Virus record (IMG/VR): IMGVR_UViG_2526164632_000023
Length of the DNA: 17,922 bases
Strand: one strand, 5' to 3'
Source: a virus
Taxonomy: Duplodnaviria > Heunggongvirae > Uroviricota > Caudoviricetes
Under the pieces are notes generated by a model, which had not been told where the DNA came from, searched no databases, and saw only the letters and a program-made list of their open reading frames with translations. Shown here piece by piece: positions 1,228 to 17,922 of this stretch; the first letter of the stretch is position 1, and the number at the start of each line of letters is the position of its first letter. The translations under genes and the position numbers were made by a program.

Positions 1228-1318
1228 ACTGATATTACGGGCATAGGTCGGCCAACCGAAAAGCGGGAAACCCTACCCGCCTGGCTCGTAAAGTATTTAG
1301 GGCGTTGAGGGTAGCGCA

Positions 1319-6411: not shown

Positions 6412-6954
6412 ATGACAACGCTGACCATTAACCGGAAGCCGAAAGGCATTTACGGCACGCCGCAGAAAACGACGCAGGCGGCGCAAGAGCAGGATAAAAC
6501 CACATCGGCGCATAAAGTGATACCCGATAATCAGAACGCACAGCAGAGCCGCAAACAGAAGACCGCAGGGGCGACACCGTGGCAGCATATGACCAAAAGA
6601 CAGCGCAAAAACCGCCGACGCGTTAACCGCCTCACTGAGATGTGGCCTGACTTATTCAGCCATAAAGCACCGAAGCCGCTTAAGGTGGGGATATTCGACG
6701 ACCTGATGCAGGATATCGCCGTCAGGGGGCTGGCATTCGGGTCGGGGGTATTACGTGCGACGCTGGCATCCTATGCGCAGTCTCCGCGCTATTACCGCGC
6801 CCTGATAGCTGGTGGCGCACGTTACGACCTGAAAGGCCAGCCATGTGGGGAAGTGACACCACAGGAACAGCAGGAGGCAGAAACACGGCTGATGGTGCTG
6901 AATGAGAAGCACAAGCGCCAGCGCCGGGCAGCAAAGGGGGATACATGCCAGTGA
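6412..6954 (+). CDS. ProQ/FinO-domain RNA-binding protein
   Basis: Central region PLKVGIFDDL...LRATLASYAQSPRYYRALIAGGARYDLKGQPCGEVTPQEQQEAE aligns by eye with the ProQ/FinO N-terminal domain as I remember it (PLKIGIF.DL ... LRSALRLYT.S.RY ... RVDLDGNPCGEL). Basic N- and C-terminal extensions. GGGGAAGG RBS before ATG 6412. Confidence 0.8.
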   Translation: MTTLTINRKPKGIYGTPQKTTQAAQEQDKTTSAHKVIPDNQNAQQSRKQKTAGATPWQHMTKRQRKNRRRVNRLTEMWPDLFSHKAPKPLKVGIFDDLMQDIAVRGLAFGSGVLRATLASYAQSPRYYRALIAGGARYDLKGQPCGEVTPQEQQEAETRLMVLNEKHKRQRRAAKGDTCQ

Positions 6955-7193
6955 CATTTGAAGAAGTTCAGCAACATAAAAAGCTTCATGGTTTTGATGA
7001 TCTGGAAACCACGACAGCAAAAAAATATCGTCGGTTGCTTTCTTCCGATGCGTTATTTTTTGTGGATCATCATGATTTTCTGCGTAGCTCACTGACCGGG
7101 GAAATTTTCGCAACCAACCGTGAGCAGGTGGAAGCGATGATCGAATATTTGTGGAAAATAAGACGCAGAATGCGGGAGCCAGTGAAACAATAA
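6945..7193 (+). CDS. Hypothetical protein (82 aa), last gene of early operon
   Basis: Start overlaps the previous stop; followed by a terminator hairpin. Confidence 0.5.
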   Translation: MPVTFEEVQQHKKLHGFDDLETTTAKKYRRLLSSDALFFVDHHDFLRSSLTGEIFATNREQVEAMIEYLWKIRRRMREPVKQ

Positions 7194-7202
7194 AGCGATA
7201 AA

Positions 7203-7229
7203 GGCCCGGATTTTTTCCGGGTCTTTTTT
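7203..7229 (+). terminator. Rho-independent terminator after early operon
   Basis: CCCGGA / TCCGGG stem with T-rich loop, followed by a T run (aaggcccggattttttccgggtctttttt). Confidence 0.5.
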
Positions 7230-7264
7230 CAGGTTTTGTAAATTATTTGTTCGTGGTTGTTCCA

Positions 7265-7272
7265 GGTTGTTC
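7265..7272. repeat. Target-site duplication (left copy) GGTTGTTC
   Basis: Identical 8-mer directly abuts both IS ends (7265-7272 and 9976-9983). Confidence 0.8.
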
Positions 7273-7357
7273 GTAAGCGCATCATTTAAACCGTCTTTCG
7301 CCTCCCTTTCCTGTTTCCGATACTAATGTCCATTTTCGCAGTAAAAGGACATTTAAG

Positions 7358-8008
7358 ATGAATGCACGAAAAGCGGTACTGGCAGATAATCCAGAATTGA
7401 TCCTGCGTGTGCTACAGCTGAGATTTGACGAGTCACTGTCGTACCCGCGCATTTCTGCGCAGACTGGTGTCAGCAAAACCGCCATTTTTTCTCTGGTGAG
7501 GCGATTTCACCAGGTATTCACTGACTGGCCTCTTTCCGGTGAATATTCCTGCGGGCAACTGGCCCGGGCTCTTTTCCCGGGGCGATACCCTTCAGCCCCG
7601 ACCGTGACTCAGCCTGTGAAAGCAGAGAAACCCCGCCGGAACCGATTTTCACCGGAGTTTAAATGGAGACTGGTTCAGCAAACTCTTTTACCCGGTGCCT
7701 GTGTCGCACAAATAGCTCGAGAGAATGGAATTAACGATAACCTGCTCTTTAACTGGCGGCATCTCTGGCGTAACGGTGGCCTGCAACCGCCCGGCGAACA
7801 TGAAACATCGCTACTTCCCGTGACGTTAACTCCGGAGCCGGATAATAAAATCCCGGCACCAGTGCAGATACCTGAACAGATAAATACACTGCCAGACAGT
7901 CTGTGCTGCGAGCTGGTTCTGCCGGCCGGAACTCTCAGGCTGAAAGGTGAACTGACACCGGCGTTATTACAGACACTTATCCGCGAAATGAAAGGGAGCA
8001 GCCACTGA
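7358..8008 (+). CDS. tnpA: IS66-family accessory protein TnpA (orfA)
   Basis: 216 aa with HTH-like N-terminus; position and sequence typical of IS66 orfA; stop overlaps the tnpB start. Confidence 0.8.
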   Translation: MNARKAVLADNPELILRVLQLRFDESLSYPRISAQTGVSKTAIFSLVRRFHQVFTDWPLSGEYSCGQLARALFPGRYPSAPTVTQPVKAEKPRRNRFSPEFKWRLVQQTLLPGACVAQIARENGINDNLLFNWRHLWRNGGLQPPGEHETSLLPVTLTPEPDNKIPAPVQIPEQINTLPDSLCCELVLPAGTLRLKGELTPALLQTLIREMKGSSH

Positions 8009-8355
8009 TGATATCTCTCCCTGCCGGTTCGCGTATCTGGCTGGTTGCCGGTATCACCGATATGCGAAATGGCTTTAACGGCCTGGCCTCAAAAGTTCAG
8101 AACGTCCTGAAGGATGACCCGTTCTCCGGGCATCTGTTCATCTTCCGCGGACGCCGGGGTGACCAGATAAAAGTGCTGTGGGCTGACAGTGACGGACTGT
8201 GCCTCTTCACCAAACGCCTGGAGCGGGGCCGCTTCGTCTGGCCGGTCACCCGCGATGGAAAGGTTCACCTTACTCCGGCTCAGTTGTCCATGCTTCTCGA
8301 AGGCATCGACTGGAAGCACCCGAAACGAACGGAACGCGCTGGCATCCGCATATAA
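8008..8355 (+). CDS. tnpB: IS66-family accessory protein TnpB (orfB)
   Basis: 115 aa, MISLPAGSRIWLVAGITDMRNGFNGLA...LWADSDGLCLFTKRLERGRF is the conserved IS66 orfB signature. Confidence 0.9.
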   Translation: MISLPAGSRIWLVAGITDMRNGFNGLASKVQNVLKDDPFSGHLFIFRGRRGDQIKVLWADSDGLCLFTKRLERGRFVWPVTRDGKVHLTPAQLSMLLEGIDWKHPKRTERAGIRI

Positions 8356-8374
8356 CCCGTTGTAAAGTGAGGAT

Positions 8375-9945
8375 ATGGACACCTCACTTGCTCATGAGAA
8401 TGCCCGCCTGCGGGCACTGTTGCAGACGCAACAGGACACCATCCGCCAGATGGCGAAATACAACCGCCTGCTCTCACAGCGGGTGGCGGCTTATGCTTCC
8501 GAAATCAACCGGCTGAAGGCGCTGGTTGCGAAACTGCAGCGCATGCAGTTCGGTAAAAGCTCAGAAAAACTTCGCGCTAAAACCGAACGGCAGATACAGG
8601 AAGCACAGGAGCGAATCAGCGCACTTCAGGAAGAAATGGCGGAAACGCTGGGTGAGCAATATGACCCGGTACTGCCATCCGCCCTGCGCCAGTCTTCAGC
8701 CCGTAAACCGTTACCGGCCTCACTTCCCCGTGAAACCCGGGTCATCCGGCCGGAAGAGGAATGCTGCCCGGCCTGTGGTGGTGACCTCAGTCCTCTGGGG
8801 TGTGATGTGTCAGAGCAACTGGAGCTTATCAGCAGCGCCTTTAAGGTTATCGAAACACAACGTCCGAAACTGGCCTGTTGTCGGTGCGACCATATCGTGC
8901 AGGCAACAGTACCTTCAAAACCCATTGCACGCAGTTATGCCGGAGCGGGGCTTCTGGCCCATGTTGTTACCGGGAAATATGCAGACCATCTGCCGTTATA
9001 CCGCCAGTCAGAAATATACCGTCGCCAGGGCGTGGAGCTGAGCCGCGCCACGCTGGGGCGCTGGACAGGTGCCGTTGCTGAACTGCTGGAGCCGCTGTAT
9101 GACGTCCTGCGCCAGTATGTGCTGATGCCCGGTAAAGTCCATGCTGATGATATCCCCGTCCCGGTCCAGGAGCCGGGCAGCGGTAAAACCCGGACCGCCC
9201 GGCTGTGGGTCTACGTCCGTGATGACCGTAACGCCGGTTCGGAAATGCCCCCGGCGGTCTGGTTCGCGTACTCACCGGACCGGAAAGGTATCCATCCACA
9301 AAATCATCTGGCCGGTTACAGCGGTGTGCTTCAGGCCGATGCTTACGGTGGTTACCGGGTGTTATACGAATCCGGCAGAATAACGGAAGCCGCGTGTATG
9401 GCTCATGCCCGGAGAAAAATCCACGATGTGCATGCAAGAGTGCCCACCGACATCACCACGGAAGCCCTGCAGCGTATCGGTGAACTGTATGCCATAGAGG
9501 CAGAATCCGGGGATGTACAGCAGAACAGCGTCTGGCGGCAAGAAAAGCCAGAGCTGCGCCACTGATGCAGTCACTGTATGACTGGATACAGACTCAGATG
9601 AAAACACTGTCGCGTCACTCGGATACGGCAAAAGCGTTCGCATACCTGCTGAAACAGTGGGATGGCCTGAACGTGTACTGCAGTAATGGCTGGGTGGAAA
9701 TCGACAACAACATCGCAGAGAACGCCTTACGGGGAGTGGCCGTAGGCCGGAAAAACTGGCTGTTCGCGGGTTCCGACAGCGGTGGCGAACATGCGGCGGT
9801 GTTGTACTCGCTGATCGGCACATGCCGTCTGAACAATGTGGAACCAGAAAAATGGCTGCGTTACGTCATTGAGCATATCCAGGATTGGCCGGCAAACCGG
9901 GTACGCGATCTGTTGCCCTGGAAAGTTGATCTGACCTCTCAGTAA
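8375..9945 (+). pseudogene. tnpC: IS66-family transposase TnpC, split by an apparent 1-nt frameshift near 9500-9510
   Basis: ORF 8375-9565 has the leucine-zipper N-terminus, CPACGG...CCRC zinc-finger motif and DDE core; ORF 9565-9945 in another frame carries the conserved C-terminus [26 protein letters not shown]. The second frame is open back to 9484, so the shift lies in 9484-9565. Confidence 0.8.
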
Positions 9946-9975
9946 ATATCAATACGGTTCTGGCGAGCCGCTTAC

Positions 9976-9983
9976 GGTTGTTC
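9976..9983. repeat. Target-site duplication (right copy) GGTTGTTC
   Basis: See left copy at 7265-7272. Confidence 0.8.
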
Positions 9984-10177
9984 GGTGATTCTGGCTGATG
10001 TTTACATACTGATTTTTATGTATATGTTGGCGTGTGGCACTCAGACGTGAGCCGCCACAATGCCGCCTGACCCCCTGCGCGATGCCGGGTTGATCTGCGA
10101 GATGCCGAGAGTGTCGGGCGGCGCTCCCCCCGTGTTGGTTTCACGTCCTGAATCTTAACCAATGCGAGAAAACATTC

Positions 10178-11323
10178 ATGAAGAAATTAATCGAACTCCG
10201 CCAGCAAAAAACCGCCCTGAAAAACCAGATGCGATCCCTGCTGGAAAAAGCCGACAATGAAAACCGCAGCCTGAACGATGACGAAGGCAAACAGTTTGAT
10301 GAACTGCGTGCAAAAGCCGATTCCCTCGACACAGAAATTTCCCGCCTCGAGTCTGTGGCTGATGAAGAACGTAACCAGCCTGGTGTTCCCGTCGAAGATA
10401 AAATCACCAAAAATGAGCTACGCTCTTACATTCTGACCGGGGAAACCCGCAACCTGTCCGGCAGTGTTCCGGCTGATGGTGGTTATACGGTTATCCCGGA
10501 ACTGAACAGAGAAATTATGCGTCAGCTTTCTGATGAGTCGGTGATGCGTAAAATCTGTACTGTTAAAACCATTCACAGTAATGAATTTAAGCAACTGGTT
10601 TCTGCCGGGGGTGCGGTCGTGGGACACGGCGAAGAAGGTGCGGCACGTAACCAGACGGCAACCCCAAAACTGAATGAAGTCAGTATCCGCCTGTATCCGA
10701 TCTACGCTTACCCGAAAACCACTCAGGAAATTATCGATTTTTCCGAAGTCGATATTATGGGCTGGTTATCTTCTGAAATTGGCGACACTTTCGTTGATAC
10801 CGAAGAAACGGATCTGGTTTCCGGTGATGGCGAGAAAAAAGCCAAAGGTTTCCTGACTTTCCCGCGCACTACGGATAATGACAAAACCCGTCCTTTCGGT
10901 ACGCTCCAGACGAAAAAAGTGACTGGCAGTCTCAGCGCCGATATGCTGATTGACCTGAAATTTACGCTGCGCAATAAGTACCGCAAAAAAGCTGTATGGG
11001 TGATGAACTCAAATACAGCCGCCTCCGCACAAAAACTGAAAAATGCCACTGGTGATTACATCTGGCGCGATCGTTTACAGGCTGGTGATCCTGATTCTCT
11101 GCTGGGGCTTCCGGTTGAATATCTGGAATTTATGCCGGACGGTGTGATTGCAGTCGGTGACTTTAAGCGCGGTTATTTCATCGTTGACCATAAAACCGGT
11201 ACGCGTACCCGTCCGGATTTCAGCGAGCCTGGATTCATTAACATCTATACCCAGAAATATCTGGGCGGTGGTGTGGTGGATTCGAACGCCATCAAGATTC
11301 TGGAAATTCAGGCTGGCAAGTAA
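10178..11323 (+). CDS. Major capsid protein, HK97 fold, with N-terminal coiled-coil delta/scaffold domain
   Basis: 381 aa; coiled-coil-like N-terminus MKKLIELRQQKTALKNQMRSLLEKA...; GGYTVIPE and LLGLPVEYLEFMP...GDFKRGYFIVDHKTG motifs typical of HK97-family capsid proteins. Confidence 0.85.
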   Translation: MKKLIELRQQKTALKNQMRSLLEKADNENRSLNDDEGKQFDELRAKADSLDTEISRLESVADEERNQPGVPVEDKITKNELRSYILTGETRNLSGSVPADGGYTVIPELNREIMRQLSDESVMRKICTVKTIHSNEFKQLVSAGGAVVGHGEEGAARNQTATPKLNEVSIRLYPIYAYPKTTQEIIDFSEVDIMGWLSSEIGDTFVDTEETDLVSGDGEKKAKGFLTFPRTTDNDKTRPFGTLQTKKVTGSLSADMLIDLKFTLRNKYRKKAVWVMNSNTAASAQKLKNATGDYIWRDRLQAGDPDSLLGLPVEYLEFMPDGVIAVGDFKRGYFIVDHKTGTRTRPDFSEPGFINIYTQKYLGGGVVDSNAIKILEIQAGK

Positions 11324-16848: not shown

Positions 16849-17385
16849 TGGCGCGACTACAGGGCTGGATCATCAATATGGTGACGCAGCAACAGAGTGA
16901 CCATTAGTCACCTTGTTCTAACTCGCTGTATTCGTTTAATTTCCACCAACTGCGGAAATTGAGAAACTCACCCGCCAGATTCTGAATGGTGAAAATCACC
17001 GGGGATCTGAATAGGCATTTCCTCTATGGAGGTCGCACCGTTTTCGGGAGAAGGTGCGATCATGTTCGTCATACCGGTTCCGTTGAAATGAAATAGCCTT
17101 GTATGGGCATCATCACCATGCAGGGGATCAAAATCTCTGTAGCTTCATGTTGCCGGGACCGCCAGCCTCGCCAAATTTTTGCGTTTGTGAAAAACGAAAA
17201 TTATTACGTGCTTTGCCCTCTCCTGTTTCTGATGTTGTATACTCGCGGCCTTCTAATTGTGCTGGTGCTTTTTTGAGATTGTGGCGCTGTGTATCGATCC
17301 GTATATCATTCGGTGTATCACTTTTGATAAATTGCTACGTGTGAATTTGTTTTTAACTGACAAAAATCAGTGAGTTATGTGAATT

Positions 17386-17922
17386 ATGAAACATATTGTA
17401 GAAGTAATGATCCCCGAAGCGGAGATTAAAGCGCGTATCGCCGAACTGGGTCGTCAGATTACTGAGCGTTACAAAGACAGCGGCAGCGATATGGTGCTGG
17501 TGGGTCTGCTGCGTGGCTCATTTATGTTTATGGCGGACCTGTGCCGTGAAGTTCAGGTATCTCATGAAGTCGACTTTATGACCGCCTCCAGCTACGGTAG
17601 CGGCATGTCCACCACCCGTGATGTGAAAATCCTCAAAGATCTGGATGAAGATATCCGTGGCAAGGACGTGCTGATTGTTGAAGATATCATCGACTCGGGG
17701 AATACACTGTCGAAAGTGCGTGAGATCTTAAGCCTGCGCGAACCGAAGTCGCTGGCGATTTGTACGCTGCTGGATAAACCGTCCCGTCGTGAAGTGAACG
17801 TCCCGGTAGAATTTATCGGTTTCTCGATCCCGGATGAGTTTGTGGTGGGTTACGGCATTGATTACGCACAGCGTTACCGTCATCTGCCGTATATCGGCAA
17901 AGTGATTCTGCTGGACGAGTAA
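17386..17922 (+). CDS. hpt: Hypoxanthine phosphoribosyltransferase (chromosomal core gene)
   Basis: 178-aa product is near-identical to E. coli Hpt as I remember it ([55 protein letters not shown]...); complete, with stop at the window end. Confidence 0.95.

Follow-up and report, generated by a model that had tools for sequence, protein, structure and literature searches.

IS679 insertion just upstream of the putative capsid-operon promoter of a cf-PICI in Escherichia coli

The window, as the whole stretch of 17,922 nucleotides analysed here is called, holds an island whose early and capsid modules are parted by a 2.7-kb segment. The locus raises the question of what this segment is, whether it was truly inserted there, and what it may do to the genes downstream. 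The reading that we favour, at a probability of roughly 90% for the explanation as a whole, is that IS679 recently transposed into a capsid-forming PICI (cf-PICI) just upstream of its capsid-operon promoter, possibly lowering induction or packaging of this island copy. The features on which the argument draws are collected in Table 1.

Table 1. Features at and around the IS679 insertion, in window coordinates
Feature	Position	Strand	Details
Last early-module gene, 82-aa protein, PHROG 1957	6945-7193	+	function unassigned
Intrinsic-terminator-like hairpin and T-run, early-operon end	7200-7229	+	-19 kcal/mol, z = -4.63 (RNA fold)
TTGTAAAT box, upstream edge of conserved capsid-promoter block	7236-7243	+	
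Three 10-bp-phased direct repeats	7246-7272	+	TTTGTTC (7246), GTTGTTC (7256), GTTGTTC (7266)
Target-site duplication, left copy	7265-7272	.	GGTTGTTC
IS679 (IS66 family)	7273-9975	+	2703 bp; same orientation as island genes
Left terminal inverted repeat	7273-7297	+	GTAAGCGCATC...
tnpA (IS66 accessory protein)	7358-8008	+	Pfam HTH_Tnp_1, 7.5e-17; identical gene is tnpA in RefSeq
tnpB (IS66 Orf2-like accessory protein)	8008-8355	+	Pfam TnpB_IS66, 2.8e-40
tnpC 5' part	8375-9565	+	leucine zipper, zinc finger, DDE_Tnp_IS66 profile positions 1-204/284; frame lost after 9505
1-bp deletion in tnpC	9505/9506	+	intact IS679 GCAGAAGTCCGG, window GCAGAATCCGG
tnpC 3' part	9565-9945	+	DDE_Tnp_IS66 profile positions 209-283 and IS66 C-terminal element; other frame
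Right terminal inverted repeat	9951-9975	-	...GAGCCGCTTAC
Target-site duplication, right copy	9976-9983	.	GGTTGTTC; re-creates promoter-proximal repeat
Capsid-operon promoter-like site	10001-10028	+	TTTACA, 16-nt spacer, TATGTT
Invariant 25-mer hairpin, predicted capsid mRNA start	10034-10058	+	exact copies in at least 120 viral contigs
Leader stem P2	10062-10122	+	10062-10070 pairs with 10114-10122; encloses variable insert
Second invariant leader block	10136-10147	+	TGGTTTCACGTC; GGTTTC can pair with GAAACC just before start codon
Major capsid gene, HK97-type, first of packaging module	10178-11323	+	Pfam Phage_capsid, 8.2e-61; RefSeq

The segment is an element of the IS66 family, specifically IS679, and its transposition is an already known, ordinary kind of event. 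Alignment with the 2704-bp IS679 of plasmid RIP71a (NZ_MN626601), labelled in RefSeq as 'IS66-like element IS679 family transposase', resulted in matches at 2703 of 2704 positions, with one gap and 100% identity otherwise. The two copies share the tnpA-tnpB-tnpC order, the GTAAGCG-type ends and an 8-bp target duplication, and the single base by which the window copy is shorter leaves its tnpC frameshifted. At least 80% of the element is present in 1,293 plasmid records, and IS679 was reportedly first described on pB171. The ends were aligned directly, a generic repeat finder being unable to rank such imperfect repeats, and they match as inverted repeats in 7/7 terminal bases (GTAAGCG...CGCTTAC) and 17/25 of the first bases. 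A GTAAGCG start has also been reported in classic IS66 members (PMC12888890). The initial annotation, made from the bare sequence, had described a 2703-bp IS66-family insertion with such ends and had named ends unlike those of the family as evidence that would speak against it; the IS679 identity, the terminal bases and the Pfam matches bear the description out, and the ends are those of the family. Its claim of a tnpA-tnpB-tnpC triad holds in that all three genes were recovered with Pfam, tnpC through LZ_Tnp_IS66, zf-IS66, DDE_Tnp_IS66 and DDE_Tnp_IS66_C (NCBIfam transpos_IS66, 3.4e-93), but tnpC is not one ORF, being split by the 1-bp deletion. This deletion occurs at 0 of 5,428 IS679-like places in 1,705 E. 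coli genomes. The uninterrupted 523-aa transposase ORF taken as the mark of autonomy is absent from the window copy, which bears on autonomy and not on family membership; with tnpC frameshifted, the element as sequenced could move only with TnpC from another copy. The deletion may be an assembly error, since the window contains four further 1-bp homopolymer deletions (at 1420, 3108, 3783 and 16414), each breaking a coding sequence that is intact in sister islands.

To reconstruct the empty site, window positions 6773-7272 were joined to 9984-10483, which leaves out the IS and a single copy of the 8-mer. The reconstructed site is present in one piece, at 100% over 1000 bp, in four E. coli chromosomes and is uninterrupted in 58 genomes at 80% coverage or more, and the IS is absent from three near-identical islands (99.9%). 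A search of 5,426 complete genomes returned no copy of the left junction; FDAARGOS_1059 and O111:H2 12A have the identical IS variant without the island arrangement. An exact empty site together with a junction seen in no complete genome shows a genuine insertion that is both recent and private. The alignment to IS-free copies that had been proposed as a check thus restores the uninterrupted site, the 8-mer on both sides is a true target duplication as first supposed, of the length customary in the IS66 family, and the feared opposite, relatives all carrying the same segment without duplicated flanks, is contradicted by the IS-free genomes. A third, native copy of the 8-mer lies at 7255-7262, because the target belongs to a tandem repeat, and the window holds three copies against 0.79 expected. 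The 2.7-kb segment might instead be an assembly artefact, a multicopy IS misplaced by the assembler; the assembly does look error-prone, with the homopolymer deletions and the private tnpC deletion, and IS679 is multicopy in many strains. Misplacement would, however, not yield a precise 8-bp target duplication at both junctions around complete IS ends, and this explanation is very improbable.

On its gene content, the element that received IS679 is a cf-PICI integrated into an E. coli chromosome within the 5' end of hpt. It encodes int, alpA, a RepA helicase, SSB, HK97 capsid, protease, portal, connector, HNH, TerS and TerL, together with an int-alpA RNA. The PICI core is represented by Int (Arm-DNA-bind_3, Phage_integrase), AlpA (PF05930), the RepA-type AAA_25 helicase and the Rfam int-alpA RNA, and the island's own HK97-type packaging module by Pfam Phage_capsid, HNH and Terminase_4 and by the RefSeq annotation of identical genes. 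The 26 annotated island genes include no tail or lysis genes. This is the composition described for cf-PICIs (bioRxiv 10.1101/2022.09.08.507074), which have the same int/alpA/replication genes and HK97 packaging module, a length of ~15 kb, their own att and no tail or lysis genes; the window island differs in the IS between the early and packaging modules, the RepA-type helicase and the integration in hpt. The first 20 nt of hpt serve as the att site; without the IS, the island measures 14,871 bp between the 20-bp att copies, in line with the size of about 10-15 kb expected of a cf-PICI. A 15-bp repeat considered as the att site proved wrong, the empty-locus comparison giving the 20-bp start of hpt. 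The gene content and the RefSeq annotation likewise place the IS between the early and capsid modules, as had been proposed.

The insertion lies past the early terminator, inside the third phased repeat and 17 bp upstream of the promoter-like -35, with 202 bp between the IS679 end and the capsid ATG, in agreement with the placement given in the initial annotation (after the early-operon terminator and about 200 bp upstream of the capsid gene). The promoter-like site starts 18 bp after the duplication; no other sigma-70-like match was found within 6900-10300, and its TAnnnT and TTTAC/TTTTC hexamers occupy a fixed position in 118 loci. TGTAAA stands at -86/-87 from the invariant 25-mer in 114/118 loci, and the spacing of the TTGTAAAT box, the repeats and the promoter is fixed in ~114 of the 118 related islands, even at 60-70% capsid identity. 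The sequence of the repeats varies between island lineages, their phasing and position being kept. The terminator hairpin is retained in relatives with the same upstream gene, and this 82-aa gene precedes the capsid promoter in 70/103 related loci; its product has no match in Pfam, NCBIfam or PDB. The resulting ~90-bp control block is interrupted in none of the relatives, and a comparison with the phage collection returned three short matches only. Accessory genes are often inserted directly upstream of the block in relatives. These comparisons support a regulatory function for the insertion site, and the phased repeats are presumed to be a regulator-binding array that is now separated from the promoter. 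Of the late promoter or activator site that was expected here, the regulatory site is upheld by the conserved block of fixed spacing, and the repeats are a candidate activator array.

Two island proteins were considered as binders of the repeats, and neither could be linked to them more closely than their physical proximity explains. AlpA is not supported, since a single repeat class is found alongside AlpA proteins whose identity to the window AlpA is 44%, 60% or 100% (ARI 0.41). The 82-aa protein is the best island-gene correlate of repeat class (ARI 0.83), but one repeat class pairs with five clusters of this protein, and the correlation is attributed to linkage because the adjacent non-coding DNA reaches an ARI of 0.73.

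Conservation extends into the capsid-operon leader. A capsid homologue lies downstream of the invariant 25-mer in 115/115 cases, and stem P2 shows compensatory changes in 8/9 pairs, with 60 double-change cells compared with 16.9 ± 3.2 in shuffles. No Rfam family matched the leader at E ≤ 1, the int-alpA RNA elsewhere in the window being the only match, and our literature search found no description of a cf-PICI capsid-operon control region or of how cf-PICIs time their own capsid genes. We put forward tentatively, at somewhat less than even odds, that IS679 hit an undescribed, family-wide capsid control region comprised of the box, the phased repeats that differ between lineages, a promoter at a fixed position and a structured leader, the last with a 25-nt hairpin that is invariant, a stem supported by covariation and a helix that may sequester the start site. 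If true, the strain would in effect be a natural mutant deleted for the upstream part of this region, and it is the region that would be novel. Its layout resembles lambda Q/qut late control and Pseudomonas aeruginosa AlpA antitermination (PMC7969949), in that the early operon ends with a small gene and a terminator, after which come a promoter that has specific DNA sites close by, a conserved leader and, last, the late structural genes; the likeness is one of layout, and membership is not claimed. In contrast to lambda Q/qut, the island sites are upstream of -35 and not between -35 and -10, the leader shows no U-rich terminator, and no island protein resembles Q.

The favoured reading, a recent transposition that possibly lowers induction or packaging, would act by two routes. 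The insertion puts the box and two repeats 2.7 kb from the capsid promoter, and should the phased repeats serve as an activator array, the capsid operon would be induced less strongly; from this we infer that the packaging module may be silenced or uncoupled, as the initial annotation had considered. The island also grows from 14.9 to ~17.6 kb (18%). The cf-PICI capsid, T=4 and 47.5 nm, is described as suited to 15.5 kb (bioRxiv 10.1101/2025.02.11.637232), and the enlarged island may exceed it, although a genome of 113-118% of normal length might still fit. Either weaker induction or an oversize genome would be expected to lower transfer of the IS-bearing copy. Against disruption stands the observation that the duplication restores the promoter-proximal repeat and that the -35/-10 and the leader are intact, so that the promoter may still work.

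The insertion could be real but neutral, the core promoter, the one restored repeat and the leader being sufficient and 17.6 kb still fitting the capsid. IS679 has indeed left the core promoter, the leader and every packaging gene untouched, and some lineages have only one or two repeats of the GTTGTTC form. However, the ~90-bp block is fixed in spacing (114/118 loci) and never interrupted despite accessory insertions just upstream, which argues that its contiguity matters, and we regard neutrality as rather unlikely. A change in the opposite direction is less probable still, with only a slight chance of being right: the repeats could be a repressor operator, or transcripts could read through from the IS, making the capsid operon constitutive or helper-independent. 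IS679 is co-oriented with the island genes and no convincing terminator separates the capsid gene from the tnpC stop (9945), so read-through into the capsid operon is possible; cf-PICIs have also been reported to produce packaged capsids when no inducing phage is present. Yet a search for a promoter-like site inside IS679 found none, and the repeats are centred near -60 to -80, a typical activator position.

The finding itself is of small weight, being one more IS679 hop that maybe inactivated one satellite copy, and it marks the copy as one that may be defective in capsid expression or packaging. The by-product may be weightier, as the conserved promoter block and the structured leader offer a concrete, testable target for capsid-gene timing, and the IS-bearing copy and its IS-free twins provide a ready-made comparison. 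The same island (99.7%) in E. coli O166:H15 JNE21-003 (NZ_AP041809) carries a different IS679 variant elsewhere. That insertion is likewise intergenic, co-oriented and flanked by an 8-bp duplication, but it lies after repA, with the duplication GCGCATGA, and the element has 38 substitutions and an intact tnpC. Since both the site and the IS variant differ from those in the window, the two insertions are independent events, and IS679 has struck this island twice in related enterotoxigenic-type strains. No clear target consensus emerged among 18 distinct IS679 left flanks, three of which begin with GGTTG, a hint of preference only.

The element was identified as IS679 (IS66 family), an already known insertion sequence. 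It is identical but for one absent G to the 2704-bp IS679 of plasmid RIP71a, a reference copy carrying the RefSeq label 'IS66-like element IS679 family transposase', and this identity, together with three IS66 proteins recognized by Pfam, bears out the family assigned in the initial annotation. Direct comparison of the ends showed inverted repeats that are perfect over the terminal 7 bases and match at 17 of the first 25. The 8-mer GGTTGTTC borders the element on both sides and occurs three times in the window versus 0.79 expected, the third copy being native since the target lies within a tandem repeat. The element and one 8-mer copy were deleted in silico and the 1000-bp product was compared with genomes. 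This alignment to IS-free copies, as initially proposed, was decisive and rebuilt the uninterrupted site: four E. coli chromosomes contain it as one unbroken match at 100%, and it is uninterrupted in 58 genomes, confirming the suggested 8-bp target duplication. The left junction of the IS was found in none of the 5,426 complete genomes searched. The intact empty site in other genomes and a left junction found in none indicate a genuine insertion, private to the source strain, with a probability of about 0.9 or higher for the insertion itself.

Features of the window (positions in the window; empty cells, no value)
Feature	Position	Description
Integrase		first of the listed island genes
int-alpA RNA	1236-1302 (+)	RF02996 (Rfam), 55 bits; directly downstream of integrase gene
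alpA	2385-2669	PF05930
Small early genes		after alpA
RepA-type helicase, SSB		early side, before capsid module
ProQ/FinO-domain protein	6412-6954	
82-aa protein	6945-7193	PHROG 1957
Terminator-like hairpin	7200-7229	-19 kcal/mol, z = -4.6
TTGTAAAT box	7236 onward	upstream edge of conserved block
Three 10-bp-phased repeats	7246, 7256, 7266	TTTGTTC, GTTGTTC, GTTGTTC
GGTTGTTC, native copy	7255-7262	
GGTTGTTC, flanking copies	7265-7272, 9976-9983	
IS element	7273-9975	2703 bp, ends GTAAGCG...CGCTTAC
tnpA	7358-8008	HTH_Tnp_1 (Pfam)
tnpB	8008-8355	TnpB_IS66 (Pfam)
tnpC	8375-9565 + 9565-9945	LZ_Tnp_IS66, zf-IS66, DDE_Tnp_IS66, DDE_Tnp_IS66_C (Pfam)
Sigma-70-like site	10001-10028	TTTACA-N16-TATGTT
-35, then TAnnnT -10		conserved block of related loci
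Capsid-operon leader	10034-10177	
25-mer GTGGCACTCAGACGTGAGCCGCCAC	10034-10058	starts 5 nt past -10
9-bp stem	10062-10070 / 10114-10122	
TGGTTTCACGTC	10136-10147	second invariant block
Packaging genes, in order		HK97-type capsid, protease, portal, head-tail connector, HNH, TerS, TerL
hpt	17385-17922	

All three genes of the proposed tnpA-tnpB-tnpC triad were found by Pfam, but tnpC lies in two ORFs, not one, broken by the G absent between 9505 and 9506. Positions 1-204 of the DDE_Tnp_IS66 profile fall in the first ORF (Pfam), and positions 209-283 and the C-terminal element in the second; from this copy, as sequenced, a full-length transposase cannot be produced. None of the 5,428 IS679-like places found across 1,705 E. 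coli genomes shares this deletion, which arose either by very recent mutation or as an error. Four more single bases are missing from A/T homopolymers of the window (1420, 3108, 3783, and 16414) when it is aligned with a 99.9% identical island, and each loss frameshifts a CDS whose counterpart in the sister record is intact. These suggest an error-prone assembly, casting doubt on the tnpC frameshift and making its reading as an assembly error plausible. The tnpC deletion itself lies outside any homopolymer, and therefore both error and mutation stand.

In annotated sister records the island lies between gcd and hpt, and comparison with an empty gcd-hpt locus gave the first 20 nt of hpt as the att site and a length of 14,871 bp without the IS. 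No tail or lysis genes are found among the island genes. Gene content, att site and size as found here define a capsid-forming PICI (cf-PICI; bioRxiv 10.1101/2022.09.08.507074), and the island is assigned to this known family. The portal gene (window 12219) is intact; that of the IS-free island in strain JNE070796 carries a nonsense C to A change (position 11011 of that locus, L004) and is annotated as a pseudogene. Against the O166:H15 sister strains, hpt shows 5 differences in 537 positions and the island is 99.9% identical; such divergence beside a near-identical island points to a probably different chromosomal background, consistent with recent horizontal spread.

The early operon ends in a strong terminator-like hairpin, and the sole sigma-70-like site between 6900 and 10300 begins 18 bp past the right duplication. 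Related loci were drawn from IMG/VR in two sets, 61 via the capsid protein and at least 120 via the invariant 25-mer. Of 118 loci, 114 have TGTAAA at -86/-87 relative to the 25-mer, a spacing that is fixed despite capsid proteins only 60-70% identical to that of the window in most loci. The repeat sequence is lineage-specific, whereas phasing and position are constant across lineages. Accessory genes are frequent directly upstream of the box, and nothing interrupts the block from box to 25-mer in any locus examined. This conserved block supports the original placement of the insertion at a regulatory site between the early terminator and the capsid gene. The IS is located in the third repeat and has moved the box and the other two repeats to a distance of 2.7 kb from the promoter. 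The hit site may form part of an undescribed cf-PICI late-control region, a tentative reading with the odds somewhat against it.

The 25-mer, an invariant hairpin-forming sequence, was found in at least 120 viral contigs, and a capsid homologue lies downstream in 115/115 loci. The 9-bp stem that follows shows compensatory changes at 8 of its 9 pairs among 30 distinct leaders; double-change cells number 60 versus 16.9 +/- 3.2 in shuffles (0/500 reach 60), and slid controls collapse. TGGTTTCACGTC has complementarity to two places, the GAAACC immediately ahead of the start codon, with which it could pair, and the first hairpin's loop; both predicted helices are invariant and thus provide no covariation by which to assess the pairing. 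No Rfam family matches the leader, a possible cis-regulatory RNA of cf-PICIs that would be as yet undescribed.

The core promoter, leader and packaging genes are all intact, and the upstream block is split. The position of the phased repeats near -60 to -80 suggests an activator array, in which case induction of the capsid operon would be weakened. The IS lengthens the island by 18%, to about 17.6 kb; a unit of this size may package poorly because the cf-PICI capsid (T=4, 47.5 nm) has been described as fitting 15.5 kb. Induction could instead be left unimpaired, as the target duplication restores one repeat on the promoter side and read-through into the capsid operon is possible, the IS being co-oriented with no convincing terminator found after tnpC; the longer island may also still fit the capsid. 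A real loss of island function is judged close to an even chance. The initial interpretation is thus borne out in part: insertion, family, duplication and regulatory location hold, and silencing of the packaging module is a possible outcome.

Candidate repeat-binding proteins were assessed by whether the clustering of any island protein tracks repeat class (ARI). AlpA was not supported as the binder, with one repeat class co-occurring with AlpA proteins 44%, 60%, and 100% identical to that of the window (ARI 0.41). The 82-aa protein, found upstream of the capsid promoter in 70/103 related loci and with no match in Pfam, NCBIfam or PDB, is the best correlate among all ORF families (ARI 0.83). 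Five different clusters of this protein occur with one and the same repeat class, and a spurious ORF merely overlapping adjacent DNA reaches 0.73; its correlation could therefore be accounted for by linkage. The binding factor could also be encoded by a helper phage. The ProQ/FinO-domain gene lies two genes upstream of the capsid leader, on which an RNA-chaperone role is conceivable; a close homologue occurs in only 8 of 121 loci.

The island layout resembles that of lambda Q/qut late control (small gene, terminator, promoter with specific sites, leader, late genes) and of AlpA antitermination in P. aeruginosa, although we claim membership in neither. The P. aeruginosa AlpA binding element lies between -35 and -10 (PMC7969949), unlike the putative binding sites of the island, and the island capsid leader shows no evident terminator. 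A different variant of IS679 occupies the same island in E. coli O166:H15 JNE21-003, at an intergenic position downstream of repA (7209-9912 of that locus, L003); it has 38 substitutions, an intact tnpC and the duplication GCGCATGA. Judged by variant and site, this is an independent second event, indicating that IS679 insertion into the island recurs. The insertion in the window is an ordinary event of an already known kind. Sixteen contig ends in the draft genome of Escherichia sp. MOD1-EC7003 (L066-L082) stop inside the left end of IS679, a sign of its large expansion in that strain. With all sources pooled, 3 of 18 distinct left flanks start with GGTTG, that of the window being one of the three.
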